Assembly: GCA_964421625.1 (NCBI GenBank)
Contig: CAYQXR010000001.1
Location: 40,756 to 104,755, forward strand
DNA from: an uncultured Gemmatimonadaceae bacterium
GTDB lineage: Bacteria; Gemmatimonadota; Gemmatimonadetes; Gemmatimonadales; GWC2-71-9
Reading direction: 5' to 3'
Length of the DNA: 64,000 nt
Below are positions 3,824-39,430 of this stretch, one piece after another. The notes beneath the pieces are model-generated. The model made no database searches. It worked only from the letters and a program-made list of their open reading frames with translations, and was not told where the DNA came from. The position numbers were made by a program, and so were the translations under genes. How positions within the stretch are numbered: position 1 is the first letter of the stretch; each line of letters begins with the position of its first letter.

Positions 3824-3843
3824 CAGCCGGGGCCGCGCAGGCC

Positions 3844-4434
3844 TCAGGTCGCGGGTGAGGTCGTGTCGGTGCCGCGCCAGGGCTGCGGCAGGTCCTGCAT
3901 CTGCCAGCGCCGGACGGCGCGCTGGAAGAACAGCGAGTTCGGCACCTGGAGCACGCTGCCGGTCAACTGCCCGGCGCCGTCGATCTCCTCCAGCGTGGTG
4001 AAGATCAAATTGATGTCGCGCACGCGGCCCTTCATTGTCGGCTTGTCGCTGCTCTCCATCAGCTCGATGTAGTCGAGCAGCCGGAACAGTCGCGTGGCGA
4101 AGATCAGCATGCTGCAGAAGATGTTGGACAGGACGCTCCAGGCGGCGAAGAACGCCACGGCCGCCACGGCCGCGAAGCCGGTGAAGGCGGTCCACAGCAC
4201 GCTGCCCGACACGCCGAGCTGCTCCAGAATCACCAGCGTCGCTGCCATGTAGATCAGGAACGCCGACACCCGGCGTGCGCCGACCAGCAGGGCCTGGTGG
4301 AGGGCGTAGCCTTGCCCCACCCGCTGAATGAGCCGCCAGGACAGGCGCTGGAGAATCAGGGCCACTCCGATGGTGGCGAGCGGAACCAATACGTCGACCC
4401 ACTGCCGGGGCCAGGAGGGAAGGGGGGTATCCAT
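3844..4434 (-). CDS. small mechanosensitive ion channel (MscS family) protein
   Basis: Three N-terminal TM segments are followed by an MscS beta-domain signature (DYIELMESSDKPTMKGRVRDINLIFTTLEE...VLQVPNSLFF). Confidence 0.75.
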   Translation of the reverse strand: MDTPLPSWPRQWVDVLVPLATIGVALILQRLSWRLIQRVGQGYALHQALLVGARRVSAFLIYMAATLVILEQLGVSGSVLWTAFTGFAAVAAVAFFAAWSVLSNIFCSMLIFATRLFRLLDYIELMESSDKPTMKGRVRDINLIFTTLEEIDGAGQLTGSVLQVPNSLFFQRAVRRWQMQDLPQPWRGTDTTSPAT

Positions 4435-24100: not shown

Positions 24101-25273
24101 TCAGGGTTCGGCGGCGACCAGTCGGGCCAGGTCCAGATGGACCTGCCCCTGGGCATCGGTCCCGCGCACCAGCACCAGGTCGCCGTCGGCCGCAATGACC
24201 CGCTGAGAGGCGGGCAGCGCCACCCGGCGCAGCAGTTCGCCCGTCTCCGCGAACACCACATACTGCCGCTCGGCTGCCCCACGGACCACGTAGGAACCAA
24301 CCCAGAGCGAGCCATCACGGGACTCCAGCAGGTCGTCGTAGGCCGGGAGCGAATCGGCGAAGACCGTCCGGTCGAGGGCAGCCAATGCCTCGGCCATGCC
24401 CTCGGGGTCGTCCTCTGCCAGCGTCTGCAGGGTCTGCCGCTGACCGGCCAGGGCCGCATCGCGCATTGCCGCCGTCACGGCCACCGCTGGTTCGCGGATG
24501 GTCACGACTCGCCGAAGGGCCCCGGTGGTGTCGCGTACGGCAAAGGACCACCCCGTCCGGCTGGTGACGATCGACCCGCCCCACGGACGGGCCAGCACCG
24601 GCTGACTGAACTCTGCCGCCGCCGTGCCCGGCCAGGTGGCCAGGGTGTCGACGCCCGATCGGCTCAGCCGCAGCAACTGCTGGGTGGCGCTGCCGCCGGC
24701 GGTGGAGTTCTCGACCGCAATGGCAATACCCGGCGCGAGTTGTTGCAGCACGGTGGCGACCACCGGTTCCGATGGTCCGACCTGGCTCTCCCGGAGGACC
24801 TGGAGGTCGCTGGCGCCGAGCTGGATCACCCGGGCCGGAAAGTCGACCAACTGGACCACGCCACCAGACAGGGCGCGGAGGGTGCTGGGCGCATTCAGTG
24901 CGCCGGGCCCGCTGCCGCGACGTCCGAAGGTGCCGTGGACCGCGCCGGTGGAATCGTAGAGAATCACCCGACTGACCCGGGAGTCGAGCGCAACGAAGTG
25001 CCCGCCGCCCACCAGCGCCGCCGTCCGGATCATTGCAGCGGGGTGCAGGGAGTCGGTGTCGGCCATCCGGTAGATGGGCGCGTCCAGCCGGAACCGGGGT
25101 GCGGTGGCCAATGCTGCGGCCTCGTGCTCGACCAGGGCCACGCCGGCCGAGTCGCGGACGACCATGGTCCCGGCACGTCCCGATTCACCGCCGCATCCCA
25201 GCAGTCCGATTGTCAGGGCTCCAGCGCCCCACCACAGTCCTCGCATCACGACTCCCTCATCCCGTTGGGTCAC
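24101..25273 (-). CDS. hypothetical lipoprotein, probable beta-propeller
   Basis: Lipobox LTIGLLGCGG; a likelier start is the ATG at 25246. The repeat-like strand pattern contains GRRGSGPGALN. It resembles the proteins at 34550..35602 and 43088..44212. Confidence 0.5.
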   Translation of the reverse strand: MTQRDEGVVMRGLWWGAGALTIGLLGCGGESGRAGTMVVRDSAGVALVEHEAAALATAPRFRLDAPIYRMADTDSLHPAAMIRTAALVGGGHFVALDSRVSRVILYDSTGAVHGTFGRRGSGPGALNAPSTLRALSGGVVQLVDFPARVIQLGASDLQVLRESQVGPSEPVVATVLQQLAPGIAIAVENSTAGGSATQQLLRLSRSGVDTLATWPGTAAAEFSQPVLARPWGGSIVTSRTGWSFAVRDTTGALRRVVTIREPAVAVTAAMRDAALAGQRQTLQTLAEDDPEGMAEALAALDRTVFADSLPAYDDLLESRDGSLWVGSYVVRGAAERQYVVFAETGELLRRVALPASQRVIAADGDLVLVRGTDAQGQVHLDLARLVAAEP

Positions 25274-25444: not shown

Positions 25445-25894
25445 CTACTTGACGATCACATACCCGACCATCCCCAGGGCCGCATGCGGGTCACAGTGGT
25501 AGTACAGTCGTTTGCCGCTGGCCGATGGGACGGTGAAGTCCCAGGTCTGTCCGGGGAGCTGGAGCATCTCACCTGCTTCGGGGAGGCCGGCCACGCCCGG
25601 GTTGCTGTCCGAAACGAAATGGACGTTATGGACCCCGGTCGCGAGGACGAAGCGCACCACGTCTCCCGGCTCGGCTTCCACTTCCTTGGGCGCGTAGTAG
25701 CTGCCGTGCTCATCAGTCTGCATGTCGACGGTGATGATCTTCCCGGTCGGGGCCGGCGCGGCCGTGGCCGACGAGCCACCTCCTCCCGAGGGCTGACCGG
25801 CGGGGGCGGGCGCATCGCCGCCGCCACAGGCGATGAGGAGGGCGGCAGGGAGAAGCATCAGGGTGGACGACAGGCGTGACATGAAGAGCCTCAT
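25445..25894 (-). CDS. plastocyanin/azurin-family type-1 copper lipoprotein (cupredoxin)
   Basis: Lipobox LLIACGGG, a Gly/Ala/Pro linker, and type-1 Cu ligands in VHNVHF ... YYHCDPHAALGMVG. The real start is the ATG at 25894 or 25882. The 459-aa track ORF is an Arg/Pro-rich extension that overlaps nosY. Confidence 0.88.
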   Translation of the reverse strand: MRLFMSRLSSTLMLLPAALLIACGGGDAPAPAGQPSGGGGSSATAAPAPTGKIITVDMQTDEHGSYYAPKEVEAEPGDVVRFVLATGVHNVHFVSDSNPGVAGLPEAGEMLQLPGQTWDFTVPSASGKRLYYHCDPHAALGMVGYVIVK

Positions 25895-25968
25895 GGAATG
25901 GGGCGTGCCGGAAAGCGGAGCGGGGCCGGATGCGGCACGGGACAGGCGGCCGGAAGAGCACGGAGACA

Positions 25969-26760
25969 TCAGAAGTCCTTGCGCTGCAGGGCGCGGCGCG
26001 CGAACAGGATGGGACCGACGGTCCAGACGAGCAGGAGCGTTCCGACGCCGGCCTGACCGACGCGGGTTCCCAGCACGTCCTGGACGACGGCACCGGTGTA
26101 GCCGAGCATGATGGAGGCCTCGGATCCCAGCAGGAGGAGCACGCGCCCGAGATCGAAGGGGTTTGCCGCCAGCAGGGCGAGCAGGGCGCTCTCGATCGGC
26201 CGGGGCCCAGCCAGCATCGCGCCGAGCAGGAGCAGGCCGTCCCAGAGCACGCTGCCGACCAGCCAGACCACCAGGGCGGTGGTCAGCGCCCGGACTCGGT
26301 CGTCGACCCGCAGGGCAATCAGGAAGGCCAGGGCCAGCGAGGTCATGGTGAGCACCACCGTCATGCCGACCAGTCCCAGCAGTCGGCCCAGCATCGGGCC
26401 GACGAGCATGCCGTGCCAGGCGAAGGGTGCCAGGATCCCGACCACCAGGGCAGTGGCAAGCGGCAGCACGGCTCCGACATACTGGGCCACGAAGAGCTGG
26501 CTGCGGGCAATGGGCTGGGCCAGGAGCAGTTCGGTCATCTCCCGCCCGTGGTGTACCTGGAGCGTGCCGACCACCAGTCCCGCCAGCGGGGTCACGATCA
26601 GCGCCACATCGAGGAGCGAGACCAGAGTGGTCGGCCCGCCGCCGCCGAAGCGGAGCAGCAGTTCGCCGCCGACGGCCAGTCCCGCCGCCAGCAGCAGCAG
26701 CCAGCGGGAGCGCCAGGCGTCCCGCAGCGACATGCCCAGGAGTACGCGCAGGGTGGTCAT
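25969..26760 (-). CDS. nosY: nitrous-oxide reductase maturation ABC permease NosY
   Basis: Six-TM ABC-2 type permease. It is coupled (4-nt overlap) to nosF within the nos cluster. Confidence 0.85.
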   Translation of the reverse strand: MTTLRVLLGMSLRDAWRSRWLLLLAAGLAVGGELLLRFGGGGPTTLVSLLDVALIVTPLAGLVVGTLQVHHGREMTELLLAQPIARSQLFVAQYVGAVLPLATALVVGILAPFAWHGMLVGPMLGRLLGLVGMTVVLTMTSLALAFLIALRVDDRVRALTTALVVWLVGSVLWDGLLLLGAMLAGPRPIESALLALLAANPFDLGRVLLLLGSEASIMLGYTGAVVQDVLGTRVGQAGVGTLLLVWTVGPILFARRALQRKDF

Positions 26761-27476
26761 GCGACCGCCCGACGGATGCCACCGCCCAGCAACTGGACCA
26801 GGGCCCGCTCCAGCGTGGGTTCACCGGTGCGGGCGCGCAGAGCGGTCAGCTCGCCGGACCAGGCTGCCACGCCCTGCGAGAGAAACAGGACCTCATCGGC
26901 CAGTTCCTCCAGCTCGGGCAGGATATGCGAGGTGATCAGGATGGTCGTCCCCCGGCGCCGTTCGGCGTGCAGTCGGTCCTTGAGCACCCGGGCCGCCACC
27001 GGATCGAGCCCAGCCGTCGGCTCGTCGAGCAGCAGGAGCTTGGGCCTGAAGGCCAGGGCGAGCACGGCGTTGACCTTCTGTCGGGTGCCGCCGGACAGCG
27101 TACCGAAAGGGCGATCAAAGGCCTCGCCCAGATCGAAGGCCTCAGCCAGGGAGAGATCGGGTGTGGCACCGCCGCGCAGCCGGGTCAGCACGCCGAGCAG
27201 GTCGCGCCCGCTCAGATGCGGCGGGAAGTGCGCGATCTGCGACATGTACCCGATGGTCATCCGGCAATCCGACCGCTCCTGCGGCGAGACCCCGTCGATG
27301 GTGATCCGCCCTTGGTCGGGACGCGCCAGATCCAGCAGCAGCTTGATCAGCGTGGTCTTGCCGGCGCCATTCGGACCCACCAGGGCGGTGATCCGCCCGC
27401 CGGACAGCTTGGCGTCGAAGCCGGTGAGCACCGCGAGACGGCCGAAGCGCTTGTGGACCCCGTGAAAGTGGATCAT
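26757..27476 (-). CDS. nosF: nitrous-oxide reductase maturation ABC ATPase NosF
   Basis: Walker A GPNGAGKTT, signature LSGGTRQK and Walker B LLLLDEP. It overlaps both nosD and nosY. Confidence 0.88.
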   Translation of the reverse strand: MIHFHGVHKRFGRLAVLTGFDAKLSGGRITALVGPNGAGKTTLIKLLLDLARPDQGRITIDGVSPQERSDCRMTIGYMSQIAHFPPHLSGRDLLGVLTRLRGGATPDLSLAEAFDLGEAFDRPFGTLSGGTRQKVNAVLALAFRPKLLLLDEPTAGLDPVAARVLKDRLHAERRRGTTILITSHILPELEELADEVLFLSQGVAAWSGELTALRARTGEPTLERALVQLLGGGIRRAVA

Positions 27477-28720
27477 GGCATCAGTCCGGTCGGCGGCCGC
27501 AGCAGCGGCGTGGCATCGATGACGGCTGTCGGCGTCAGCACGGGGAGCACCCGTTCCGCCGCGTCGAGCAGCCGGACGAACAGGGTGCGGTGCAGCAGGA
27601 GGATGGCGGGCACCCGTTCCCCCAGCACCGCGAAGAGCCGGATCGGCCGGTGCGGCACGTCGCCCAGGCCATCGTGGTTGAGGTCCCAGCCGCGGTAGCT
27701 ATCCCACCAGTTGGCTTCGAAGTGCGGCGCGCCGATCCGGCCGTTGACGGCGACATCGAAGACATTGGCCTGGAAGACATTGCCCCGGAAGTCGGCATCG
27801 CTGGTGCTGGCCAGCACCCGCACCGCCCAGCCGTTGCTGACGAACTGGTTGTCGCGCACCTGCAACCGGTCGGCGCCGTCCGCCAGCAGGGCCGTGGTGT
27901 TGCTGGCGAAGCGGTTGCCGGTGAGGCGCACATCGGCGATGTCCTTGAGCAGCAGGCCGTGCGCCGTGGTGCCGCGGTTCTCCTCGAAGCGGTTGCCCCG
28001 CATGAGCACCTGCCGCGAGTACATCACGGCCACGCCGCTGCCGTTGGCCCGGAAGACATTGGCCTCGTAGTCGGAGGAGTCGGCATACATGAAGTGCAGG
28101 CCGTAGCGGATGTTCCGTTCGCTGTGGTTGTCGCGGACGGTCGCGTGCCGGGTGAACTCGAGGTAGATGCCGTCGCGGTGCCCGGTGATCCGGTTGCCGT
28201 CGATCGCCAGATGGCGTGAACCCCAGGCGTGAATCGCATTGCCGGTGCCCGACTCGATGCCGGGCGTTCCGGCGATGGTGTTGCGCCGCACGGCGCAGTC
28301 GACCACATCCGTCAGGTAGATGGCGAAGAAGGTGTCGTCGAACCGGTTGTCGGCCACGGTGCAGCGGGTGGCGCCGTCGAGGTGCAGCGCAGCGCGATCC
28401 TGATGATGCGACCGACCGGTGTGGCGGAAGGTGAGGCCCTGGATGGTGACGTCGGATGCGGTCACCCGGAGCAGTTCCCGCTGTCCCTCGCCGTCGAGGA
28501 TGGCCCCCGGCGCCCCGACGAGCACCAGCGATCGATCGATCACCACCACGGGGCCGCGGTGGACGCCGGCGGGCACCACCACGGTGTCCCCGGCGCGGGC
28601 AGCCGCCACAGCGGTGGCCAGATCGAACGGCGCGCCCTGGGGGACTGCGGCCAGGCTCAGCGCGGCGTGGGCCATCACCAGGAACAGCATCTCAGGACCC
28701 TCCGCCCCGGCTGAAGGCAT
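27473..28720 (-). CDS. nosD: nitrous-oxide reductase maturation protein NosD (parallel beta-helix)
   Basis: Periodic beta-helix repeats (NRFDDTFFAIYL, NTIAGTPG...GNAIH, NRITGHRDGIYLE, NHSERNIRYGLHFMY, NVFRANGSGVAVMY, NRFEENRG...). An alternative start is the ATG at 28690. Confidence 0.9.
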   Translation of the reverse strand: MPSAGAEGPEMLFLVMAHAALSLAAVPQGAPFDLATAVAAARAGDTVVVPAGVHRGPVVVIDRSLVLVGAPGAILDGEGQRELLRVTASDVTIQGLTFRHTGRSHHQDRAALHLDGATRCTVADNRFDDTFFAIYLTDVVDCAVRRNTIAGTPGIESGTGNAIHAWGSRHLAIDGNRITGHRDGIYLEFTRHATVRDNHSERNIRYGLHFMYADSSDYEANVFRANGSGVAVMYSRQVLMRGNRFEENRGTTAHGLLLKDIADVRLTGNRFASNTTALLADGADRLQVRDNQFVSNGWAVRVLASTSDADFRGNVFQANVFDVAVNGRIGAPHFEANWWDSYRGWDLNHDGLGDVPHRPIRLFAVLGERVPAILLLHRTLFVRLLDAAERVLPVLTPTAVIDATPLLRPPTGLMP

Positions 28721-29147
28721 CCCGTGCCTTCACGGCTGCCACCACGTCATCCCAGGTCAGGACCTGGCCGTCCCAGGCGGTGGTGGCGTGCGACGCAGCT
28801 ACCGCGATGATGCCCAGGCCCATGGGTGAGGTGCCCTCGGTCATCTGGTGGAAGCGGAGATCCGCCAGCGGCAGCAGGGTGCCGGGGGCCACGGCATCGG
28901 TGCCCCAGAGCGAGCGGGGGGGCTCCTGGGTTGCCAGCCAGGCGGCCAGACATTCCAGCGAGTCGAACCGCACGGTCCGCCCGGCCGACGTAATGGCCGC
29001 CGCCCCGAACCGGCGGTCGGAGAGCGTCATGCGGCAGTGCTCGCAGGCGTCGCGGTCCCAGGTGATCGACGGGGTCCCGTCGGCACAGCCGGTCAGGTGG
29101 ACCACCGCCACGCCCCCGAGCAGGAGCAGCAGTTCGCGACGGTTCAC
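28692..29147 (-). CDS. nosL: copper chaperone lipoprotein NosL
   Basis: GTG at 29147 overlaps the upstream stop (GTGA). Lipobox HLTGC, and the NosL motif DACEHCRMTLSDRRFGAAAI. Confidence 0.8.
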   Translation of the reverse strand: MNRRELLLLLGGVAVVHLTGCADGTPSITWDRDACEHCRMTLSDRRFGAAAITSAGRTVRFDSLECLAAWLATQEPPRSLWGTDAVAPGTLLPLADLRFHQMTEGTSPMGLGIIAVAASHATTAWDGQVLTWDDVVAAVKARDAFSRGGGS

Positions 29148-29728
29148 GCCGCCACTCCCCGCGGGCGGCTGACGTACCACGCGGCCGCTGCCAGGCCGAA
29201 GGCCAGTCCCAGGGCCAGCGCACCGAGGCCCGGCCAGGCCATGGCCACGAAGTTGAGCAACTGCTTGCTGCCGATCAGCGGCGGTTGATAGGTCATCCCC
29301 GGCACGATGATGATCGCGTTCTCCATGTCGAGGTTGTGGCCGTAGTCGTACTCCCAGCGCCAGAAGTCCACCAGGCCGACCACGCCCAGCAGGGCGAAGC
29401 CGACCAGCCAGCCGGTGAGCATCCGCCGGGTGCCCCGCCAGGCAATGGCGAAGGCGGCGAGCGAGAGGGCGCCGATCACCCACGGCATGATCCGCAGTTC
29501 GGGAATCGCGTCGGGGGTGATCGGCTTCATCCCGATGTAGTGGTTGAGGCCGTTGATGTTCTGCAGGTCATTCGGCTTGATGCCGGTGACCTTGGAGGCC
29601 CAGATCTGGAGTCCGAGCCCCTCAGGGTACTGTGGTGCACCCAGGCGCACCTCCCACAGCGGGAACAGGAGTGCCGGCAGGACCAGCACCGCAGCGACTG
29701 CGAGCAGGAAGCGCGCCCTGGTGGTCAT
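29144..29728 (-). CDS. nos-cluster integral membrane protein (NosB-like, clade II)
   Basis: 194 aa with about 4 TM segments. It lies immediately downstream of nosZ (2-nt gap), the position occupied by nosB in clade-II clusters. Assignment is by context only. Confidence 0.5.
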   Translation of the reverse strand: MTTRARFLLAVAAVLVLPALLFPLWEVRLGAPQYPEGLGLQIWASKVTGIKPNDLQNINGLNHYIGMKPITPDAIPELRIMPWVIGALSLAAFAIAWRGTRRMLTGWLVGFALLGVVGLVDFWRWEYDYGHNLDMENAIIIVPGMTYQPPLIGSKQLLNFVAMAWPGLGALALGLAFGLAAAAWYVSRPRGVAA

Positions 29729-29729
29729 C

Positions 29730-31766
29730 TCAGCGCTCCCCGTCCTTGCCGTGCTGGTGCACGGCCGGGGCCGCCGACGGATTCACGTACTTGCCAGCCC
29801 GGTCCTGCTGGGTGGCCGCGCGGTCACTGACTGCGAAGGTGATCGGCGTGTTGCTGCCGCGCGCCCCGACCCGGACATACCCCTGCATCTCCTGGTGCAG
29901 CGCGCTGCAGAAGTCGGTGCAGTAGAACGGGTACACGCCGGGCTGGGTCGGCACCCAGGTGATGGTCCGGGTCTCGCCGGGCTGCAGGATCAACTCGGCG
30001 GTGTTCATGCCGAGCACCGCGAAGCCATGGAGAATGTCCCAGTCCTGTTCGACGTTGGTGACATGCCAGTAGACGGTGTCGCCCACTTCGATGCCGTTGA
30101 TCACGTCGGGCGCGAAGTGCGAGCGGATGGCCATCATCTTCACGTGGACGTTCTTGCCGCGCCGTTCCACGCCCGCTTCGGCCGCCGCCCGCACCACCCA
30201 CGGATGCTTGTTGTCGGCCAGCGAGAAGAACTTGATCTGCTTGTCCTTGATCAGACTGGCCGGCAGGGCCTGGGCGTAGTGCGGCTCTCCCATGGTCGGG
30301 AAGTCGAGCAGGAGCTGCATCTTCTCGCCGCTGATGTCGATCAACTGCGCCGCGTGGGCCAGCTCACCGCCGGTGGGGAGGTAGCGGTCCTTGGTGATCT
30401 TGTTCATGGCCACCAGGTACTTGCCCCAGGGCTTCACGCCGTCGCCGCCGGGGATCATCAGGTGACCCACCGAGTAGTAGACCGGGATCCGGTCGACGAT
30501 CTCCCAGGTGCCCAGCTTCCACTTCACCACTTCGGACGAGATGAACATGGTGGTGTAGGCGTTGCCCTTGCCGTCGAACTCGGTGTGCAGCGGGCCCAGG
30601 CCCGGCTTGTCGACTTCCCCTGCAATGGTGGACTCGTACTTCAGGATCGGCGAGCCGTCGAGTTCCCCGTCGAAGTCCTTGGCTTCGATGGCCTTGATCA
30701 TCTTCGAGAACGAATGCACCGGGATCAGCGAGGCGAGCTTGCCGCCGCCGACGATGTATTCGCCGCTGGGATCCACGTCGACGCCATGCGGCGACTTGGG
30801 GGTCGGCAGGAAGTACAGCATGCCCGGGCAGTCCTTCGGGACCAGCATCTTCACGGAGGTCCGCATCTCGCTGCGGGCGGTCCGGGTGGCCGGGTCCACA
30901 TGGTTGTGGGCATAGCGGGCCGGGGCGGTCTTCGCCTTGCCGTCCGCCACGCACTTCTCGGCCAGCTTCCAGTTGATCGCCGCGATGTAGTCCTTGTCGT
31001 TCTTCGAGGCGTTCAGTTCCAGCTTGGTATAGGCCAGCTCGGAGTTGTAGCTGGTGAAGAAGAACCAGCCTTCCGACACGGCCTTGCCGGCCCGGCCGAG
31101 GTCGTAGTTGTACCCGGGCATCAGAACCTGGAAGGCGACCTCCATCTTGCCGGGTTCATTCGCCTTCACGAACGACACCGAGCCCTTGAAGTTGCTGGCG
31201 TAGGTCTCGATCGGTACGTCAGCGTTGGGGATCGGCACCGAGAAGCGCACCGCCGAGACCACGTACTCCGAGTTCGGAGTGACGAAGGGCGAGGCGTGCC
31301 CGCCGGCCGAATGCGGGATCTCGATGATCTCGTCGGTCTCGAAGGTGGTCAGGTCGATCCGGGCAATCCGCGGCGTGTTGTTGCCGTTGATGAAGAGCCA
31401 GCGCCCGTCCGGCATGCCGGCCGTCTGCGAGAGCTGCGGATGATGGGTGTCGTCCCACGGCACGAAGCCGTAGGAGGTCTCCAGCATCGGCTTGGTCTCC
31501 TCGTTGTAGCCCCAGCCGTTCTCGGGGTGCTGCGAGAAGACGGGCACCGTCTTGATGAGCCGGCCCGACGGCAGCCCGTACACGGTGATCTGGCCGCTGA
31601 AGCCGCCCGACTTGAAGGAGTAGAACTCGTCGTGCTCGCCCGGTGCGACGTAGACCCGCTGGGCGGCGTCGCCGCTCAGGAGCTGCTGGGGCGACCCCGA
31701 GTTGCACCCGCTCAGCGCCGCCGCAGCGACAAGGAGCGGAAGGGTGATGAACGGTCGATGACGCAT
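29730..31766 (-). CDS. nosZ: nitrous-oxide reductase NosZ, Sec/lipoprotein-type (clade II)
   Basis: The N-terminus MRHRPFITLPLLVAAAALSGC has a lipobox and no twin-arginine. CuZ-region motif WDDTHHP. The C-terminal CuA site is FYCTDFCSALHQEMQGY, followed by a ~45-aa tail without CxxCH. Confidence 0.95.
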   Translation of the reverse strand: MRHRPFITLPLLVAAAALSGCNSGSPQQLLSGDAAQRVYVAPGEHDEFYSFKSGGFSGQITVYGLPSGRLIKTVPVFSQHPENGWGYNEETKPMLETSYGFVPWDDTHHPQLSQTAGMPDGRWLFINGNNTPRIARIDLTTFETDEIIEIPHSAGGHASPFVTPNSEYVVSAVRFSVPIPNADVPIETYASNFKGSVSFVKANEPGKMEVAFQVLMPGYNYDLGRAGKAVSEGWFFFTSYNSELAYTKLELNASKNDKDYIAAINWKLAEKCVADGKAKTAPARYAHNHVDPATRTARSEMRTSVKMLVPKDCPGMLYFLPTPKSPHGVDVDPSGEYIVGGGKLASLIPVHSFSKMIKAIEAKDFDGELDGSPILKYESTIAGEVDKPGLGPLHTEFDGKGNAYTTMFISSEVVKWKLGTWEIVDRIPVYYSVGHLMIPGGDGVKPWGKYLVAMNKITKDRYLPTGGELAHAAQLIDISGEKMQLLLDFPTMGEPHYAQALPASLIKDKQIKFFSLADNKHPWVVRAAAEAGVERRGKNVHVKMMAIRSHFAPDVINGIEVGDTVYWHVTNVEQDWDILHGFAVLGMNTAELILQPGETRTITWVPTQPGVYPFYCTDFCSALHQEMQGYVRVGARGSNTPITFAVSDRAATQQDRAGKYVNPSAAPAVHQHGKDGER

Positions 31767-31861: not shown

Positions 31862-31877
31862 CGTGACGGTTGTCACA
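31862..31877. promoter_or_regulatory. Crp/Fnr-type box CGTGAC-GGTT-GTCACA upstream of nosZ
   Basis: It matches 11/12 arm positions of the perfect palindrome at 33195..33210. Its centre lies about 103 nt upstream of the nosZ ATG. Confidence 0.55.
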
Positions 31878-31918: not shown

Positions 31919-32356
31919 CTACTGCCGATTCCCGGCGCCGGCCGCACGGATTCGGGGGCGCAGTGCCAACACGCCAGCCAGCAGGCCCAGCACCTGGAGC
32001 AGGCCACCGGTCACGGTGGCGAGGCGCCAGCCCAGCGCGGGGTGCGTGGCGGTGACGATCTCACCGACCCCCCGGAGCGTGGTGCCTGCCGACAGGCACC
32101 ACCAGGCCATCTCGCCGTGCCAGGCGCGGACCCGGGGGTCGTCGGCCCGCGGCCGTGGGAACAGCCAGATGGCCGTGCCGAGGATGACGTGGAGCACGCT
32201 GCCAGCCAGCAGCAGGTGTGCATGGGCGCTGATGAGATGCGGGGCCGGCCACTGGTGGAGCAGGTCACGACGGACCAGCATCCAGAGACCGAGCCCCAGA
32301 CCCCAGACGAGAAAGACGAGTGCCGCAGCGAAAAAGCGTCGGGAGAGCGCCGACAC
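31919..32356 (-). CDS. 4-TM membrane protein resembling heme-copper oxidase subunit I helices X-XII (paralogue B)
   Basis: The GTG start abuts the stop of the upstream paralogue. HAHLLLAGSVLHVILGTAIWLFPR aligns with HIHMLTLGFVTMMIAGVAYHVFPR of the neighbouring gene. Confidence 0.6.
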   Translation of the reverse strand: MSALSRRFFAAALVFLVWGLGLGLWMLVRRDLLHQWPAPHLISAHAHLLLAGSVLHVILGTAIWLFPRPRADDPRVRAWHGEMAWWCLSAGTTLRGVGEIVTATHPALGWRLATVTGGLLQVLGLLAGVLALRPRIRAAGAGNRQ

Positions 32357-32815
32357 TCAGCGCCCGCCCGGCTCCACGGTCGGCATCGGACGCAGCGGCG
32401 GCAGCCGGTTCGGCAGCACTGCGGCCTTGTCCAGCGTCCGCCAGAGGTTCCAGGCCAGGCAGTAAGCCCCCGCCACGGAGCAGAGCGCCCCGGCGGCCAG
32501 CAGGGCTCTCGTGGCGCTGCCGCCGTTGGCCCGCACCGCGAACCCGGTTGCCAGCAGCGCCAACCCCACGTTGGCCAGCACCAGATGAATCCGGGCCAGG
32601 TTGCGCGAGTGCAGCGGCGTGGCGGCGAACCGCGGGAACACATGGTACGCCACCCCCGCAATCATCATGGTGACGAAGCCGAGCGTCAGCATGTGGATGT
32701 GGACGGTGCGGTAGATGATGAAGGCGGGGAAGGTCGCCATCGTGAGCCCGAGCGTCACCCCGGCTACCAGCCAGCAGAGCGAGGCCCGCAGAAAGCCCAG
32801 GACGTGCGTTTCCAC
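32357..32815 (-). CDS. 4-TM membrane protein resembling heme-copper oxidase subunit I helices X-XII (paralogue A)
   Basis: VHIHMLTLGFVTMMIAGVAYHVFPRF...LARIHLVLANVGLA is compared with COX1 [26 protein letters not shown]...WAKIHFAIMFVGVN (recalled from memory). There are four predicted TM helices. Confidence 0.6.
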   Translation of the reverse strand: METHVLGFLRASLCWLVAGVTLGLTMATFPAFIIYRTVHIHMLTLGFVTMMIAGVAYHVFPRFAATPLHSRNLARIHLVLANVGLALLATGFAVRANGGSATRALLAAGALCSVAGAYCLAWNLWRTLDKAAVLPNRLPPLRPMPTVEPGGR

Positions 32816-32816
32816 C

Positions 32817-33137
32817 TCAGCACCCGGCGCAGCAGGCGTTGACCAGCGACACCTCGATCACCAGACCGAGGTCGCCCGCACTCACCGCATGCGGTGCGTC
32901 CGGTTCGAGCTGCACGAAATCGCCTTCGACCAGCGGGCGCTCCTCGTCGCCGCAGGTGAGGCGTCCGGCGCCCTGACGGACCCGGATCGAGACGCGCGAG
33001 GGGTTGCGGTGGGTGGGGAGGGACTGGCCCGGCAGGAAGGTCAGAATCGAGACGCGCCCGGCGATGGGATCCTCGGTCACCTGGACGGAGGGACGCTCGG
33101 GGCGCGGCATGGCGCAGGCGGGGGCTTCAGTAGACAT
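32817..33137 (-). CDS. cupin domain protein with C-terminal Cys-rich tail
   Basis: 106 aa with a cupin-like core (LPGQSLPTHRNPSRVSIRVRQGAGRL...GDFVQLEPDAPHAV). It ends in NACCAGC. It lies 1 nt upstream of the first 4-TM gene. Confidence 0.65.
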   Translation of the reverse strand: MSTEAPACAMPRPERPSVQVTEDPIAGRVSILTFLPGQSLPTHRNPSRVSIRVRQGAGRLTCGDEERPLVEGDFVQLEPDAPHAVSAGDLGLVIEVSLVNACCAGC

Positions 33138-33194: not shown

Positions 33195-33210
33195 TGTGAC
33201 GCTTGTCACA
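33195..33210. promoter_or_regulatory. perfect Crp-type palindrome TGTGAC-GCTT-GTCACA
   Basis: It sits in the divergent region between the cupin operon (ATG 33137) and the Crp/Fnr gene, and overlaps that gene's first candidate start codon (GTG 33196). Confidence 0.65.
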
Positions 33211-33936
33211 CTCCCCGACGGGCCCGATATTGGGGGCGTGTCCTCCCTGGTCCCGATCCTCCGCGGCCTGCCGTTCTTTGCCGGTGTGCGCGACGCCACG
33301 CTCGAGCGCCTCGCGGCCCGCTGCATTCCCCGTGAAGTGGGTGAAGGCTTCCCGCTGTTCCGCGCGGGCGACCCCTGCGGCGGTCTGTACCTGGTGCTGC
33401 ATGGCCGGGTGCGCATCTACCGCACCGCCCCCGACGGACGGGAACAGACGCTGGCCGTCGAGGGCCCCGGTCGTCCGGTGGCCGAGCTGCCGCTGTTCGA
33501 CGGCGGTCCCTATCCGGCCTCGGCGGTGACCGTCATCCCCTCACGCCTGGCCTTCCTGCCGCGCGCCGAGTTCACTCACGCCTTCCGGACCGAACCCGAG
33601 GTCGCCATGGCCGTGGTCACCGCCCTCGGCGCGCGCCTGCGGCACCTGGTGCAACTGATCGAGACGGTGGCCTTCCGCGATGTCGCGGCCCGGCTCGCCA
33701 TGCACCTGGCGGAGTATGCCGAGCAGCACGGCACCGTGCAGGGCGATGTGGTGGTGCTGGAACTCGATCGGACCCAGGATCAGCTCGCCACCGAGATCGG
33801 CACGGCCCGGGAATCGGTCTCGCGGGCGCTCAAACAGTTGCGGGCCGCCGGCCTGATCCGGGCCCGCAGTGGGCATCGGCTGACCGTGGCCCCCCCGGCG
33901 TACCTCCGGGCCTGGGCCCGCGGTGAACCTCACTGA
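33196..33936 (+). CDS. Crp/Fnr family transcriptional regulator
   Basis: cNMP-binding-like domain (ILRGLPFFAGV...GGLYLVLHGRVRIY) and a C-terminal HTH (QDQLATEIGTARESVSRALKQLRAAGLI). There is no N-terminal Cys cluster. An alternative start is GTG 33238. Confidence 0.88.
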   Translation: MTLVTLPDGPDIGGVSSLVPILRGLPFFAGVRDATLERLAARCIPREVGEGFPLFRAGDPCGGLYLVLHGRVRIYRTAPDGREQTLAVEGPGRPVAELPLFDGGPYPASAVTVIPSRLAFLPRAEFTHAFRTEPEVAMAVVTALGARLRHLVQLIETVAFRDVAARLAMHLAEYAEQHGTVQGDVVVLELDRTQDQLATEIGTARESVSRALKQLRAAGLIRARSGHRLTVAPPAYLRAWARGEPH

Positions 33937-33949
33937 GACTTGCGTCACA
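33934..33949. promoter_or_regulatory. Crp/Fnr-type box TGAGAC-TTGC-GTCACA upstream of DUF2249 gene
   Basis: 11/12 arm positions match the palindrome. It overlaps the crp stop codon. Its centre is about 74 nt upstream of ATG 34016. Confidence 0.5.
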
Positions 33950-34015
33950 GTGGCGCGGTCAGGTCGGTGCGATCTTGAGGCCATGGCCGTCTCGCCCTGC
34001 CACCACGGATTCCCG

Positions 34016-34516
34016 ATGCACCCCTCTTTTGATCCCAACACGATTGTCGATCTCGATGTCCGCGCCACGCTGCGGGCCGGCCAGGAGCCGCTCCCGCAGA
34101 TCCTGGCCGCGGTGCGGGACCTGCCGCCCGATGGCGTGCTCCACCTGCGGACCTCGTTCATTCCGGCACCCCTGCTGACCCTGCTCGCGCAGCAGGGCTT
34201 CCAGCACCATACCGAGGCCTTCGCCGACAGCGACTGCTCAACCTGGTTCTGGCGCGGCGCCACACCGGACCGGCCGCCACCACCGGCCGAACCGGGCATC
34301 CCGGTGGTGGAGGACGTCACCGACCTCCGCCTGCTGCCGCCGCCCCAACCCATGCTCTGGATCGTGGAGCGACTGGAACAGGGCATCGACGCGCTGGAGG
34401 TGTATCTGCCCTTCTACCCCGAACCGCTCCTGCCGGTCCTGGCGCGATACAACTACGGTCTGGAACTGGTGCAGCAGGGGAGCGACGGGGTCCACGTGCG
34501 GATCGCGCGGCGCTGA
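34016..34516 (+). CDS. tandem DUF2249 domain protein
   Basis: Two DUF2249-like modules: LDVRATLRAGQEPLPQILAAVRDLPPDGVLHLRTSFIPAPLL, and DLRLLPPPQPMLWIVERLEQGIDALEVYLPFYPEPLLPVL. Alternative starts are 33983 and 33923. Confidence 0.65.
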   Translation: MHPSFDPNTIVDLDVRATLRAGQEPLPQILAAVRDLPPDGVLHLRTSFIPAPLLTLLAQQGFQHHTEAFADSDCSTWFWRGATPDRPPPPAEPGIPVVEDVTDLRLLPPPQPMLWIVERLEQGIDALEVYLPFYPEPLLPVLARYNYGLELVQQGSDGVHVRIARR

Positions 34517-34549: not shown

Positions 34550-35602
34550 TCAGCGCCGTCCGACGGTGTCGAGGGAGGCGCGCATCAGCTCCACCTGCTG
34601 GACGCCCTGACCCCGGGCCACCATGCGGCCGATGACGCCCGGCTCCAGCACCATGGTGAAGGATGGGTCGAGGCGGGTCGCAGCCAGGACCGCGCCCGTC
34701 GCCGGGTCGATGACCTCGAGCATGGTGTCGTAGAGCCGATCGGGGTCGGCAATGATGACGGCCGGGGCCCCGTCGCCGATACCACCCGGGAGCAGTCCGT
34801 CGCGCCAGTTGGGGTCGGCCATCTTGCCCATGATCCAGAGGCGCCCGGCCTCGTCCTCCCAGCCATCGACCAGGGTCGGCAGTGGCGCGGCGTCGAGCTG
34901 CGGCCCGCGGTACTGCTGATAGACCGGGTACCACTCGGGCGAGCGATCAATGGCGCGGACAAACGCTCCAGCGGTGTCCCACTGTTCCACTCGCCATTGG
35001 CGCTGCATCAGCACCGCCCAGATCCGGCCATCCCGCCCCGGAATGAGCTGGCGCAGCCCCGGATCGACCCGGTTGCCCGCCCGGAACGCCCGGCGCAGCC
35101 GCCCCTCGGGATCCAGGTGCCGCAGCGCCACGGAATCGCCGGAGCTGGCGGTGCTCACCAGCACGGACCCGTCGGGGAGAATGACGGCATCCCAGGGATT
35201 GGCCGAGAGCGTGAACGACCGGACGTACTGGCCTTCAGTGTCGAAGATCAGCACCCGGCGGTTGGCATCGAAGATCCAGATGGAATCGCCCGGCCCGAAC
35301 CGCGCGAACAGCGGGCGATCAAACCCCTCCGCCCGCCGCCCCCAGCTTCCCAGGTCGTTGAGGTGCCGCCCCTGGGCATCAAAGCGGGCCGGCAGCGCCT
35401 GCATGCCCCCCAGTTGCGGGATGACCACGCGAAAACCGGCCGGGTGCAGATCGCTGACCCGTGCGGCGCTGCGGAAGGCCATGGCACCGGCCGTATCGCC
35501 GATGGTGCCGATGGGATCGAGACGGATCGGCGCCAGTTCGCGACCGGAACCGCCGCAGGCAACAGTGGCCAGCGCGAGGCAGGCAAGACAGAGACGGATC
35601 AT
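34550..35602 (-). CDS. hypothetical lipoprotein, probable beta-propeller
   Basis: ATG at 35602 gives MIRLCLACLALATVACGG (lipobox). It has a repeated strand pattern. The longer track ORF would overlap rocD. Confidence 0.5.
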   Translation of the reverse strand: MIRLCLACLALATVACGGSGRELAPIRLDPIGTIGDTAGAMAFRSAARVSDLHPAGFRVVIPQLGGMQALPARFDAQGRHLNDLGSWGRRAEGFDRPLFARFGPGDSIWIFDANRRVLIFDTEGQYVRSFTLSANPWDAVILPDGSVLVSTASSGDSVALRHLDPEGRLRRAFRAGNRVDPGLRQLIPGRDGRIWAVLMQRQWRVEQWDTAGAFVRAIDRSPEWYPVYQQYRGPQLDAAPLPTLVDGWEDEAGRLWIMGKMADPNWRDGLLPGGIGDGAPAVIIADPDRLYDTMLEVIDPATGAVLAATRLDPSFTMVLEPGVIGRMVARGQGVQQVELMRASLDTVGRR

Positions 35603-35661
35603 GGCGGAATATACCGGCCCCGCCCGGCAGGGCGTTGGTCCTGCCCCCGCCCCGTCCCGGC

Positions 35662-36879
35662 TCAGGCGCTGGTCAGCACCTCGATCACCTGATCGGCCAT
35701 CCACGCCAGGTCGGCCTCGGCGATCACCAGCGGCGGCGCCAGCCGGATGACGACCTCATGCGTCTCCTTGCAGAGTACGCCGCGCTCGGCCAGCCGTTCA
35801 CAGAAGGACCGGGCGGGCACGGTCAGCTCGATGCCGATCAGCAGGCCCCGGCCCCGGATTTCGCGCACCATCGGCGAGGACACGGCCCGCAGGCGCGCCA
35901 ACAGGGCCGCGCCCAATCGGGCCGCGCGCTCCGCCAGTGCCTCGTCCTCCAGAATGGCCAGCGCGGTCCGGGCCACGGCGCACCCCAGCGGATTGCCCCC
36001 GTAGGTGCTGCCGTGGCTGCCCGGCTCAAACAGCCCCAGTACGTCGCGCCGCCCGACCACGGCTGAGACCGGATAGGCCCCGCCCGACAGGGCCTTGCCG
36101 AGAATGAGCAGGTCGGGTTGTACCCCTTCGTGGTCGCAGGCGAAGCGCGCGCCCGTGCGCCCGAGGCCGGTCTGGATCTCATCGGCCATCAGCAGCACGC
36201 CCGCGTCGCGACAGATCGCCGCCACCTCGCGCAGGTAGCCGTCGGGTGGGATCAGGATGCCGGCTTCACACTGGATCGGTTCGAGCAGCACACCACAGGT
36301 GCGCGGCGTGATGGCGGCGCGGATGGCGGCCGCATCGCCGAAGGGCACGGTCACGAATCCGGGTGTGAACGGGCCGAAGTCCCGACGGTACGCCTCCTCC
36401 GACGAGAAGCTGACGATGGTGGTGGTGCGGCCGTGGAAGTTGTTGGCGCAGACGATGATCTCCGCCTGGTCCGCCGCGATGCCGCGCGCGCGATAGCCCC
36501 AGCGCCGCGCCGCCTTGATCGCCGTCTCGACCGCTTCGGCGCCGGTGTTCATGGGGAGGACCATGTCGAGTCCGGAGAGCGCCGACAGGTCGCGGCAGAA
36601 AAGCGGCAACTGATCGTTGCGGAAGGCCCGCGAGGTGAGCGTGACCCGCTCGGCCTGTTCGATCAGCGTGCGGGTGAGCCGCGGATGCGCGTGCCCCAAA
36701 TTGACGGCGGAGTACGAACTGAGGCAGTCCAGGTACCGGCGCCCACCGACATCTTCGAGCCACGCCCCCTCGGCGCGCGCGACCACGATGTCCAGCGGAT
36801 GGTAGTTGTGGGCGCCGTGCTGTTCCTCGAGGGCGATCAGGTCAGCGGCGGTCAGCGATGGGGCAGGTGCAGTCGACAC
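35662..36879 (-). CDS. rocD: ornithine--oxo-acid aminotransferase
   Basis: HGAHNYHPLDIVVARAEGAWLEDVGGRRYLDCLSSYSAVNLGHAHP, and the class-III PLP aminotransferase region LLMADEIQTGLGRTG...LILGKALSGG. Confidence 0.88.
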   Translation of the reverse strand: MSTAPAPSLTAADLIALEEQHGAHNYHPLDIVVARAEGAWLEDVGGRRYLDCLSSYSAVNLGHAHPRLTRTLIEQAERVTLTSRAFRNDQLPLFCRDLSALSGLDMVLPMNTGAEAVETAIKAARRWGYRARGIAADQAEIIVCANNFHGRTTTIVSFSSEEAYRRDFGPFTPGFVTVPFGDAAAIRAAITPRTCGVLLEPIQCEAGILIPPDGYLREVAAICRDAGVLLMADEIQTGLGRTGARFACDHEGVQPDLLILGKALSGGAYPVSAVVGRRDVLGLFEPGSHGSTYGGNPLGCAVARTALAILEDEALAERAARLGAALLARLRAVSSPMVREIRGRGLLIGIELTVPARSFCERLAERGVLCKETHEVVIRLAPPLVIAEADLAWMADQVIEVLTSA

Positions 36880-36933: not shown

Positions 36934-37734
36934 TCAGAGGCCCGTGGGGTGGTCGTGAAAACTCCAGGGCAGATCGTAGCGCTCGCCCACGAGTTCGGCG
37001 AGGGCCCGCACGCCGACGGTCTCGGTGGCGTAGTGCCCGGCGTAGTAGACATTGACGCCGTACTCGAGCGCGTCGAATGTGGTGTGGTGCGCTCCCTCGC
37101 CGGTGATGAAGGTGTCGAGCCCTGCGGCGGCTGCCGCGGCGATGCGGTCGCCTGCGCTGCCGGTGATGATGCCCACGCGGGTGACGGTCTCCGGGCCACC
37201 GGGAATGAGATGCACGCTGCCACCGAGCAATTCGGTGAGACGATTCGCCAGCGCATCGCGCGACATGATCAGATGGCCGGCTGCGCCGAACGGAATGCCC
37301 TGCCACTGATCGAAGGGCGCCGGGTCGAGCAGCCCGAGCATCCGGGCCAGCACGACATTGTTGCCGACCTCCGGGTGGACATCAAGCGGAATGTGCGCCG
37401 AGTAGACTGCGATGTCGTGACGGAGGAGGGCATGGAGCCGCCGGTAGCGGCGGTCCGTGACGGGACGATTGCCGTCCCAGAACAGACCGTGATGCACCAG
37501 CAGGAGCGTGCCGGGCGGCGAGGTTTCGATCACCCGATCGATGGTGCGCTGCGAGGCGTCGACCGCCCCAACGATGGCAGTGACCGGCAGGCGATGTTCG
37601 ACCTGCAAGCCGTTCACCGCATTGGGTGCGTCGGGGAGTTCGCGGATCTGCAGGTAGTCGTCGAGCCAGGTGGTGATTTCGAGCAGGCTCGGGCCCGACA
37701 TGTCGACCATGAGATCGTCGTGCACGTGATCCAT
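36934..37734 (-). CDS. Nif3-like dinuclear metal centre protein (YbgI/GTP cyclohydrolase 1 type 2 family)
   Basis: ATG at 37734 overlaps the parB stop (ATGA). Motifs NGLQVE, LLLVHHGLFW and FITGEGAHHT. Confidence 0.85.
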   Translation of the reverse strand: MDHVHDDLMVDMSGPSLLEITTWLDDYLQIRELPDAPNAVNGLQVEHRLPVTAIVGAVDASQRTIDRVIETSPPGTLLLVHHGLFWDGNRPVTDRRYRRLHALLRHDIAVYSAHIPLDVHPEVGNNVVLARMLGLLDPAPFDQWQGIPFGAAGHLIMSRDALANRLTELLGGSVHLIPGGPETVTRVGIITGSAGDRIAAAAAAGLDTFITGEGAHHTTFDALEYGVNVYYAGHYATETVGVRALAELVGERYDLPWSFHDHPTGL

Positions 37735-38639
37735 CAGCCGTCGAAGGGGTGGCCGAGCAGGATTTCCAGCAGACGGGCCAGATCGTCGGAGGAGTAGTAG
37801 GCCAGCGCGAGCGTGCCGCGGCCACGGCGCTTGGCCGTCAGGCGGACGTCGGTGCCGAGCCGCTGGCGGAGCACTTCCTCGATGCGGCGCGCGTCGGCGG
37901 TCACCTGGCGCGGCGCGGCCTTCTTCATCATCGATCCGCGCGGCTTGGCGGCGTCGTCGCCGCGAACGCGTGCCTCGGTTTCGCGTACCGACCATCCCTC
38001 GGCTACCGCGGTGGTGGCCATCCGGGTGATGGCGGCCGGATGCGGCAGCGCCAGCAGCGCGCGGGCATGGCCACCGGACAGCGAGCCGGCCTGCATCATC
38101 ACCTGCACCTCGGCGGGCAACTTCAGCAGCCGCAACATGTTGGCGACGGTTGACCGATCTTTGCCCACCAGCCGCGCCACCTCGGCGGGCGAGAGCTGGA
38201 ACTCGTCCTGCATGCGCTGATACCCGGCGGCCTCATCCAGCGGCGTGAGGTCGTCGCGCTGCAGGTTCTCGATCATTGCGAGGGTGAGCGCGGTGCGGTC
38301 ATCGAACTCGCGGACCACGGCAGTCACGGTGGCCCAGCCGAGACGCTGCACGGCGCGCCAGCGGCGTTCGCCGGCCACCAGTTGCCAGCGACCCTCGTCC
38401 ATCGGTCGGACCACGATGGGCTGCAACAGGCCCGAGGCCTCGATCGAGGCGGTGAGTTCGGTCAGCGCGTCGTCGTCGAAGACACGGCGGGGCTGCCAGG
38501 GATTGGCGGTGATGGCGCTGAGGGGAATTTCGCGCAGCGCCTCGCCGGGCTCGGCTGTCGGCTCGCGGGAGATGGGCCCGAGCAGCGCCTCCAGGCCGCG
38601 CCCCAGCCCGCGTCGGGACGTCGACTTGGACTGCGTCAT
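37734..38639 (-). CDS. parB: chromosome partitioning protein ParB
   Basis: ATG at 38639 overlaps the parA stop. Motifs [30 protein letters not shown], and the [27 protein letters not shown]. Confidence 0.95.
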
Positions 38640-39430
38640 CGGGCCCCCGGGTCGGCAGCGAGCGCCGCGGTCCGCTTCATCAGTTCCTGCGCCACGGCCA
38701 GATAGCTCTTGGCGCCCACCGACTGGAGGTCGTAGAGCAGAATCGGCTCGCCGAAGGAGGGGGCCTCGGCGAGGCGGATGTTCCTGGGGATCACGGTGCG
38801 GAACACCTTGGCCCCGAAGTAGTCGCGGGCCTCGGAGGCCACCTCGCGGGCGAGATTCAGCCGGGCATCGTACATGGTGAGCAGGACGCCATCGAGCTGG
38901 AAGTCGGGATTGAAGTTCTGCTGAACGAGCCGTATCGTGTTGATTAGCTGAGAGATACCCTCCAATGCATAGTATTCGCATTGAATGGGAATGATCACGG
39001 CATCGGCGCCGGCGAGGACGTTCAGGGTCACCATGCCCAGGGACGGTGGGCAGTCCACCAATACGTATTCATAGGATGACCGGACGGCATCGAGGGCGCG
39101 GCGGAGGACCGTCTCGCGGCGCTCCTTGCCGATCAGCTCGATCTCGGCGCCGACCAGATCCTGATTGGCGGGGACCACGTGCAGGTAGGGGAGCCGTTCG
39201 TGCTGGTGCACCACATCGGCCACTGGCACGCCGTCGACCAGGACGTCGTAGAGCGACCGGGGGGCGGTGTTCTTGTCGACGCCGACGCCGGAGGTGGCGT
39301 TGCCCTGCGGGTCCGCGTCGACCAGGAGCGTGCGCCGCTCCGCGATCGCCAGGGAGGCTGCGAGATTGACGGCGGTGGTCGTCTTGCCCACGCCGCCCTT
39401 CTGATTTGCGATCGCGATGATTCTGGCCAT
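38636..39430 (-). CDS. parA: chromosome partitioning ATPase ParA/Soj
   Basis: Deviant Walker [19 protein letters not shown], plus [11 protein letters not shown] and [10 protein letters not shown]. Confidence 0.95.

Follow-up and report, generated by a model that had tools for sequence, protein, structure and literature searches.

Where does a clade II nitrous-oxide (N2O) reductase, NosZ, take its electrons from when neither NosR, nor NosG and NosH, nor a cytochrome c is encoded beside it? The question is raised by a seven-gene nos block on the minus strand (25445-31766) of a 64 kb stretch of DNA, hereafter the window, from an uncultured Gemmatimonadaceae bacterium (contig CAYQXR010000001.1; G+C content ~68%). 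The block runs nosZ, nosB, nosL, nosD, nosF, nosY and ends with the gene of a cupredoxin lipoprotein. A sequence-only reading of the window had put this cupredoxin forward as the candidate direct donor to the CuA site of NosZ. We found this candidacy to be supported by the synteny of related loci, by the mutual exclusivity of the cupredoxin and a nos-linked cytochrome c, and by one related locus (L046) in which a cytochrome c takes the slot of the cupredoxin. On balance, we consider it likely that the block is a nos operon in which a membrane-tethered cupredoxin replaces a NosC-like cytochrome c as the CuA donor, with maturation and regulation as proposed below; judged from the sequences, the cupredoxin probably hands its electrons to CuA of NosZ.

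The nos block and its cupredoxin

Coding frames were picked by third-position G+C, and profile searches located all seven genes of the sequence-only reading in the order that it gave, on the minus strand (Table 1). Its remark that most junctions measure 1-4 nucleotides (nt) also held: nosZ and nosB are separated by a 1-nt gap, while nosB/nosL, nosD/nosF and nosF/nosY each overlap by 4 nt. The nosL/nosD junction is a 29-nt overlap, or a 1-nt gap if nosD starts at the alternative ATG at 28690, and the gap between nosY and the cupredoxin gene is 74 nt, or 86 nt from the start called by NCBI. We infer from orientation, spacing and synteny only that the cupredoxin gene is co-transcribed with the nos genes.

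NosZ belongs to clade II, as its Sec/lipoprotein signal had already indicated. The protein scored 932.9 bits against the model of Sec-dependent NosZ (TIGR04246, cut-off 625) and 364.5 against the Tat-type model (TIGR04244), under the cut-off of 625, and it also matches PF18764 (nos_propeller). The signal type was judged from the N-terminal sequence, MRHRPFITLPLLVAAAALSGC, in which a lipobox is present and a twin-arginine motif is absent. Alignment to the NosZ of P. stutzeri (6rkz) revealed that the CuA ligands (His and C-x3-C-x3-H-x2-M) and the seven CuZ histidines are conserved. The protein ends 45 residues past the TIGR04246 match, which bears out the earlier claim that it has no C-terminal cytochrome c domain; comparison across relatives showed this 45-residue tail to be no domain but an extension of low complexity that varies between them. 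In 52 of 59 relatives, those of Ignavibacteria and Latescibacteria included, the mature NosZ is preceded by a Cys-containing signal of the lipoprotein type, so that donor and acceptor would both be tethered to the membrane. Lipid anchoring of NosZ seems general in this branch of clade II, irrespective of donor type.

The cupredoxin, 145-149 amino acids (aa) long, consists of a Gly/Pro/Ala-rich tether of ~30 aa followed by a plastocyanin-like domain (PF00127, 44 bits, cut-off 21.2). When it is aligned with plastocyanins over the full domain, the His, Cys, His and Met ligands are in register, and their spacing is plastocyanin-like (C-x2-H-x4-M). Thirty-one orthologues keep the lipobox, a Gly/Pro/Ala/Ser-rich tether, the His ligand within GVHNV and the C-D-P-H-x-x-L-G-M loop. 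The curated models of plastocyanin proper (TIGR02656, 49.8 vs a cut-off of 87.85), pseudoazurin (TIGR02375, 26.7 vs 109.85) and halocyanin (TIGR03102, 24.1 vs 93.8) all scored it below their cut-offs, and because of this we assign the window protein, by its sequence, to a separate cupredoxin lineage.

Among the products of the remaining genes, the NosB-like protein drew no Pfam or NCBIfam match, its family being without a curated hidden Markov model. It has both NosB motifs, LNHYIGM and YGHN (PMC9697520), which are invariant in 64 orthologues, and the invariant residues cluster in two predicted periplasmic loops. Of the 80 related loci described below, nearly all have a NosB homologue encoded directly 3' of nosZ. 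NosL matches PF05573 weakly (19 bits, below the 24-bit cut-off); the place of its gene between nosB and nosD is kept in related loci, and the NosL homologues of three of these (L081, L082 and L084) carry precomputed PF05573 matches.

The sequence-only reading had found no CxxCH motif in any product of the cluster. We found none in the coding frames between 18 and 42 kb, and none in the 58 predicted genes of the window; all statements here that a gene is absent from the window cover its 64 kb. The same 58 genes contain no Rieske motif, no multi-iron-sulfur (FeS) protein and a single CxxCxxCxxxC, in a GMC oxidoreductase. Neither the motif scan of these genes nor Pfam, which was run on about 40 of them, revealed a NosR-like, NosG or NosH gene, in agreement with the earlier claim, and no genes of alternative complex III (ACIII) were seen in the window. 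The further claim that there is no Rieske or cytochrome-b-like gene stands for the Rieske protein; for cytochrome-b-like genes it stands only inside 25445-31766, since a pair of genes upstream of nosZ encodes proteins like haem-copper oxidase (HCO) subunit I.

Cupredoxin or cytochrome c at related nos loci

A scan for NosZ, with one genome per species, yielded 80 loci (L001-L080), nearly all from metagenome-assembled genomes (MAGs) of Gemmatimonadaceae or Gemmatimonadales. The best NosZ match is 92% identical; the NosZ of a MAG classified as Gemmatimonas aurantiaca (L035) is 69% identical and encoded in the same arrangement, and the NosZ of Ignavibacteria, Latescibacteria and others are ~65% identical. 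When the window proteins were mapped onto these loci, the order nosZ-nosB-(nosL)-nosD-nosF-nosY was found throughout the 80. The sequence-only reading had suggested comparing related clusters for conservation of the cupredoxin; this comparison revealed a homologue directly after nosY in most Gemmatimonadaceae loci. By gene order, a cluster ended by a cupredoxin is typical for the Gemmatimonadaceae, not peculiar to this window.

We then sorted into classes those 43 loci whose sequence could be read for 700 nt or more upstream of nosZ and for 600 nt or more downstream of nosY. A cupredoxin gene lies directly after nosY, with no CxxCH open reading frame (ORF) nearby, in 26 of them. Eleven contain a CxxCH ORF and no cupredoxin (the ORF of L059 is spurious, leaving ten with a lipoprotein monohaem cytochrome c), none contains both, and six contain neither; a search of the latter for a hidden cupredoxin or cytochrome c found none. 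The exclusivity of cupredoxin and cytochrome c corresponds to a Fisher p of ~1e-5 to 2e-6 if phylogeny is not corrected for. Seen in Ignavibacteria, Latescibacteria and some Gemmatimonadota loci, the nos-linked cytochromes c are monohaem lipoproteins with a low-complexity tether like that of the cupredoxin, and their genes mostly lie a short way upstream of nosZ. The lipoprotein monohaem cytochrome c of L046 (12830-13291, plus strand) is encoded directly 3' of nosY, in the slot of the cupredoxin, a positional replacement of one protein by the other. On a neighbour-joining tree of NosZ, the outgroup loci are all of the cytochrome type and the Gemmatimonadaceae are of the cupredoxin type, with one nested subclade reverted to cytochrome or to neither. 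A convergent signature of the donor type in NosZ, common to both independent groups, was also considered and rejected: only three alignment columns qualified, none of them near CuA.

The association with nosY was also approached from the protein side. Three cupredoxin homologues retrieved by protein search are encoded directly after nosY in all six places that were recovered (L081, L082 and L084 among the loci), and no two of the loci reached in this way have the same gene 3' of the cupredoxin gene; this next gene always lies on the opposite strand. The gap between nosY and the cupredoxin gene is only 10 nt in L082. The genes that flank the nos island of the window recur in no related locus, which means that the conserved block ends at the cupredoxin gene. 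Taken together, the exclusivity of cytochrome c and cupredoxin, the synteny with nosY and the end of the block at the cupredoxin gene support a functional swap of the two proteins as the partner of NosZ.

In L081, an ENA contig, the nosZ region (2689-3854) is split into short ORFs of 224, 164 and 209 aa, while nosL-nosD-nosF-nosY-cupredoxin are intact; the broken nosZ could be a frameshifted pseudogene or the product of assembly errors.

The genes upstream of nosZ and their regulation

The cluster had been called minimal. This is not quite so, since the nos genes are adjoined by a co-regulated operon that encodes a cupin and the two HCO-like proteins, and by a pair of genes encoding a Crp-family regulator and a DUF2249 protein. 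The operon, cupin-coxA-coxB, which is absent from the sequence-only reading, lies directly upstream of nosZ on the same strand and is tightly packed (31919-33137). Its cupin gene is conserved in L001, L002, L006, L041, L043, L082 and L084; the cupin protein ends in a cysteine-rich NACCAGC, a sequence that suggests a metal or redox-sensing site.

The CoxA-like protein belongs to a family of ~150-residue proteins annotated as 'cbb3-type cytochrome c oxidase subunit I', in which H39, H41, H58 and H77 are invariant. Its AlphaFold2 model (pLDDT 90) superposes on one four-helix module of CcoN and of other oxidase subunits I, the best PDB matches being CcoN of cbb3 oxidases (TM-score 0.72-0.77), and its HxH is the counterpart of the haem-ligating pair of helix X in oxidase subunit I. 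Over the HxH...FPR region, the CoxB-like and CoxA-like proteins share 37% identity; H45 and H47 of the CoxB-like protein are invariant in 15 homologues. We rejected the possibility that the two are haem-copper oxidases: each has four helices, where subunit I of an oxidase has twelve transmembrane (TM) helices, the CuB histidines and two haem sites. They are relatives of haem-copper oxidase subunit I, not oxidases. CoxA-like genes are linked to nos genes in four different arrangements, one of which places them between nosF and nosY in Ignavibacteria, and HCO-like proteins are also encoded at the nos genes of L014, L020, L021, L025, L029, L036, L046, L047, L053, L057, L071, L074 and L077. Our conservative guess is that the pair takes part in the sensing of nitric oxide (NO) or O2 or in protection from them; a bolder guess would make it a small haem-containing electron-entry module.

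The Crp-family regulator, encoded divergently from the cupin operon, has no FNR-type N-terminal Cys cluster, and its true start is probably downstream of 33209. The DUF2249 family, to which the product of the adjoining gene belongs, has been linked to denitrification sensing in Thermus (DrpA/DrpB) and Haloferax (PMC11218638). Reading of the nosZ leader first brought to light the palindrome GTGAC-N4-GTCAC, of which the window contains two exact matches vs 0.09 expected. The nosZ-proximal box recurs 110-142 nt upstream of nosZ in L001, L002, L006, L007, L009, L026, L041 and L043, and nearly all of these eight loci have an adjacent crp/cupin/HCO-like module where the upstream flank is readable. 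The second copy is found in the crp/cupin control region of L001, L002, L006, L007, L026 and L041; that of L043 lies further upstream of the cupin gene. A search for the classical FNR box, TTGAT-N4-ATCAA, drew a blank in the control regions of nos and cupin. The conservation of GTGAC-N4-GTCAC both at nosZ and in the crp/cupin region speaks for a regulated promoter of nosZ's own and for co-regulation with the cupin/HCO-like operon. We infer that this palindrome is the box of the adjacent Crp-family regulator.

In the subclade without cupredoxin, an Rrf2-family (NsrR-like) regulator is encoded upstream of nosZ (L046, L047, L053, L057 and L071). Its gene adjoins a divergent CoxA-like gene and replaces the Crp/cupin module, as read directly in L046 and L057, which suggests a different regulatory input to the same gene set.

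The other genes of the window are housekeeping genes (yidC, parA, parB, mnmG, and genes of peptidases, oxidoreductases and ABC transporters), and the nos island is therefore chromosomal. The presence of yidC, parB, parA and mnmG/gidA places it in a part of the chromosome that commonly lies next to the replication origin. Two lipoproteins of ~385 aa without a Pfam match (24101-25273 and 34550-35704, both on the minus strand) bracket the island and its regulator genes. They were tried as paralogues and rejected, their similarity being weak (E = 0.003), and no related locus contains either of them. Neither the Rfam scan nor the tRNA scan of the window gave a match.

Table 1. Positions of the nos genes, their neighbours and the palindromic boxes in the window
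Feature	Position	Strand	Description
yidC	2-1297	+	
Cupredoxin	25445..25894	-	Lipoprotein type-1 copper protein, lipobox IACG; start called by NCBI (P0121) at 25882
nosY	25969..26760	-	ABC-2 type permease of the NosDFY system; PF12679 35.7 bits (cut-off 27.2); position conserved
nosF	26757..27476	-	ABC ATPase of the NosDFY system; PF00005 92.3 bits; position conserved
nosD	27473..28720	-	Periplasmic beta-helix maturation protein; TIGR04247 404.8 (cut-off 300), PF05048 126.7 bits
nosL	28692..29147	-	Putative lipoprotein copper chaperone, GTG start, lipobox LTGC
nosB	29144..29728	-	Four-TM membrane protein typical of clade II nos clusters
nosZ	29730..31766	-	Clade II (Sec-type) nitrous-oxide reductase, 678 aa, predicted lipoprotein, lipobox LSGC
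Palindrome GTGACGGTTGTCAC	31863..31876		TGTGAC-N4-GTCAC, perfect, Crp-family-type box, ~95 nt upstream of the nosZ ATG
coxB-like	31919..32356	-	Four-TM protein, paralogue of the CoxA-like protein; PF00115 16.5 bits, weak
coxA-like	32357..32815	-	Four-TM protein; PF00115 36 bits vs cut-off 34.8, marginal
Cupin	32817..33137	-	Cupin-domain protein, first gene of its operon; PF07883 36.8 bits; abuts the coxA-like start
Palindrome GTGACGCTTGTCAC	33196..33209		Second perfect copy, in the divergent crp/cupin-operon control region
crp	33196..33936	+	Crp/Fnr-family regulator, divergent from the cupin operon; PF00027 78.3 bits, PF13545 56 bits
DUF2249	33923..34516	+	DUF2249 protein; PF10006 67 bits; adjoins crp in related loci too
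parB, parA, mnmG/gidA	among 37734-38633, 38636-39430, 39580-41433	-	All three on the minus strand

The cupredoxin as the probable electron donor to NosZ

In the mechanism that we propose, NosZ would be exported by Sec, anchored by a lipid and matured by NosL, NosDFY and probably NosB as well. The tethered cupredoxin would take the place of the 'NosC-like' cytochrome c, a lipid-anchored monohaem protein whose gene lies beside nosZ in sister lineages, and would most likely ferry electrons one at a time to CuA along the outer face of the cytoplasmic membrane. It would itself be reduced, presumably, by a quinol-oxidising complex that is encoded elsewhere in the genome and is not NosGH or NosR. In the sub-lineage to which the window belongs, transcription would start at a promoter upstream of nosZ that carries the GTGAC-N4-GTCAC box.

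As a principle, the interchange of cupredoxin and cytochrome c is classical, and the arrangement is plausible rather than startling. In Paracoccus and Achromobacter, clade I NosZ accepts electrons from pseudoazurin and cytochrome c550 interchangeably. The window's cupredoxin would likewise be a CuA donor that can be swapped with a cytochrome c, a role read here from the genes; unlike it, the carriers of Paracoccus and Achromobacter are soluble, encoded outside the nos operon and reduced by bc1, and they serve Tat-exported clade I enzymes. The cluster itself is of the clade II nos family, more precisely of the NosGH-free type of Bacteroidota, Ignavibacteria and Gemmatimonadota. It resembles the Wolinella-type cluster, as far as that of Hein et al. 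2017 is described in PMC9697520, in encoding a Sec-type NosZ, NosB and then NosD/F/Y/L; unlike the cluster so described, which includes NosG, NosH, NosC1 and NosC2, the window encodes no FeS NosG/H, no cytochromes c and no haem domain of NosZ. A lipoprotein monohaem cytochrome c of the NosC type is encoded beside clade II nosZ in Bacillus azotoformans and Geobacillus; in Bacillus its gene comes before nosZ (PMC3475470). The NosC cytochromes and the cupredoxin are alike in being small redox proteins linked to nos, each with a lipobox and a tether of low complexity. The cupredoxin differs in binding type-1 copper rather than haem c (CxxCH), in its unrelated fold and in the place of its gene, which follows nosY, whereas the NosC genes mostly precede nosZ.

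For a cupredoxin encoded at nos, the nearest precedent is the Haloferax mediterranei 'pcy' product, a plastocyanin/azurin-like protein that is encoded directly upstream of nosZ and co-enriches with Nos (PMC7754194). Like the window's protein it is a nos-adjacent blue copper protein and a proposed donor, and its neighbourhood also contains DUF2249 genes and the gene of a protein with an HCO-type domain, as in the window; unlike the window's protein, it is archaeal, and its gene precedes nosZ instead of closing the operon. Auracyanin of Chloroflexus and Roseiflexus and halocyanin, whose lipid anchor is cited in PMC7754194, are membrane-tethered type-1 copper shuttles as well, and thus mechanistic analogues. 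They differ from the window cupredoxin in serving photosynthetic or aerobic chains, not NosZ. Auracyanin is the acceptor of ACIII, a candidate reductant here. In the library that we searched, no paper turned up on a cupredoxin linked to nos, be it in Gemmatimonadota or in bacteria with a clade II cluster, or on its exclusivity with NosC-like cytochromes; an earlier mention is possible in Park et al. 2017 or Sanford et al. 2012.

Several observations weigh against the cupredoxin as the dedicated partner of NosZ. The 74-86 nt before its gene are the sole loose junction of the operon. Scans of 24.8-34 kb for sigma-70 promoters and intrinsic terminators returned nothing useful: the consensus scans gave neither a terminator-like site 3' of the cupredoxin gene nor, on the strand of the operon, a promoter-like one, and the DNA downstream of the gene folds no better than its shuffles (z = -1.4). 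The distribution of donors can be explained by about two to three independent switches on the NosZ tree; because only so few independent events underlie the pattern, the Fisher p overstates the exclusivity. No residue of NosZ near CuA separates the cupredoxin-type from the cytochrome-type loci. Finally, the six loci with no donor gene nearby imply that the donor can be encoded elsewhere, and this donor might be a cytochrome c in the present genome too.

This last point leads to the alternative that the cupredoxin is a general carrier of the periplasmic face, serving for example a terminal oxidase or NirK, which happens to be parked at the end of the operon, the true donor being a remote cytochrome c. 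PF00127 cupredoxins are promiscuous carriers, remote donors must exist given the six loci, and the context of the cupredoxin homologues, more than 1000 in number, was checked for part of them. We nevertheless hold this alternative to be unlikely: every one of the six places to which the close homologues led from the protein side was after nosY, synteny breaks immediately 3' of the cupredoxin gene, and the protein is never found together with a nos-linked cytochrome c, which would be unexpected if it served another enzyme. The position of the gene next to those of copper maturation (nosL and nosDFY) could also mean that the cupredoxin stores or chaperones copper for CuA, and thus acts in NosZ maturation rather than in electron transfer; some proteins of the cupredoxin fold, such as CopI, do act in copper resistance, and the window protein gives a weak match to CopI (E = 0.0018). 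That match, of 18 bits, is however far under the 280-bit cut-off, the conserved His-Cys-His-Met type-1 site is complete and typical of electron carriers, and the sister lineages substitute a haem c protein, which is unable to carry copper. A role in copper handling instead of electron transfer is in our view quite improbable.

It might also be asked whether electrons enter from quinol at the nos locus itself, NosB and/or the HxH proteins forming a putative small haem quinol dehydrogenase for which the cupredoxin is the final shuttle or is dispensable. The CoxA/CoxB-like proteins keep the HxH with which subunit I of the oxidases binds its two haems, their genes accompany nos in four arrangements, and they share the regulatory box of nosZ; of the Gemmatimonadota genomes, only 23% have an annotated bc1 and <10% an annotated ACIII (PMC9426454), and NosB is essential in Wolinella, as Hein et al. 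2017 is cited in PMC9697520. Yet the invariant residues of NosB lie in periplasmic loops and include His and Met, which suggests copper handling, as does the fusion of NosB to NosL in some Bacteroidota (PMC9697520). The location of the HCO-like genes near an Rrf2 regulator in some related loci, or near DUF2249 in the window, fits NO/O2 sensing or protection, and many loci of the cupredoxin type have no adjacent CoxA. We give such a direct route from quinol little credence. Its widest form, an all-copper, cytochrome-c-free and tethered N2O branch of the Gemmatimonadaceae, into which quinol electrons enter through the HxH pair of HCO relatives, possibly with NosB, and not through bc1, ACIII or NosGH, appears to us a long shot.

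A cupredoxin that stands in for the tethered cytochrome c thus remains the reading that we favour, and with it the electron supply of NosGH-less clade II NosZ receives, for this lineage, a testable proposal: a tethered blue-copper protein in exchange for a tethered cytochrome c. Gemmatimonas aurantiaca strain T-27 is culturable and reduces N2O, and the hypothesis would be open to genetics and biochemistry if cultured G. aurantiaca carries the arrangement of L035. The co-regulated HCO-like proteins are a lead to a further accessory function. As carriers of clade II nosZ, the Gemmatimonadota have come under discussion as N2O sinks of agricultural soils (PMC9530729); they are a major phylum among the N2O reducers of soil. 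If the donor is a cupredoxin, copper would be needed for both the donor and the enzyme, which would bear on the copper limitation of N2O sinks.

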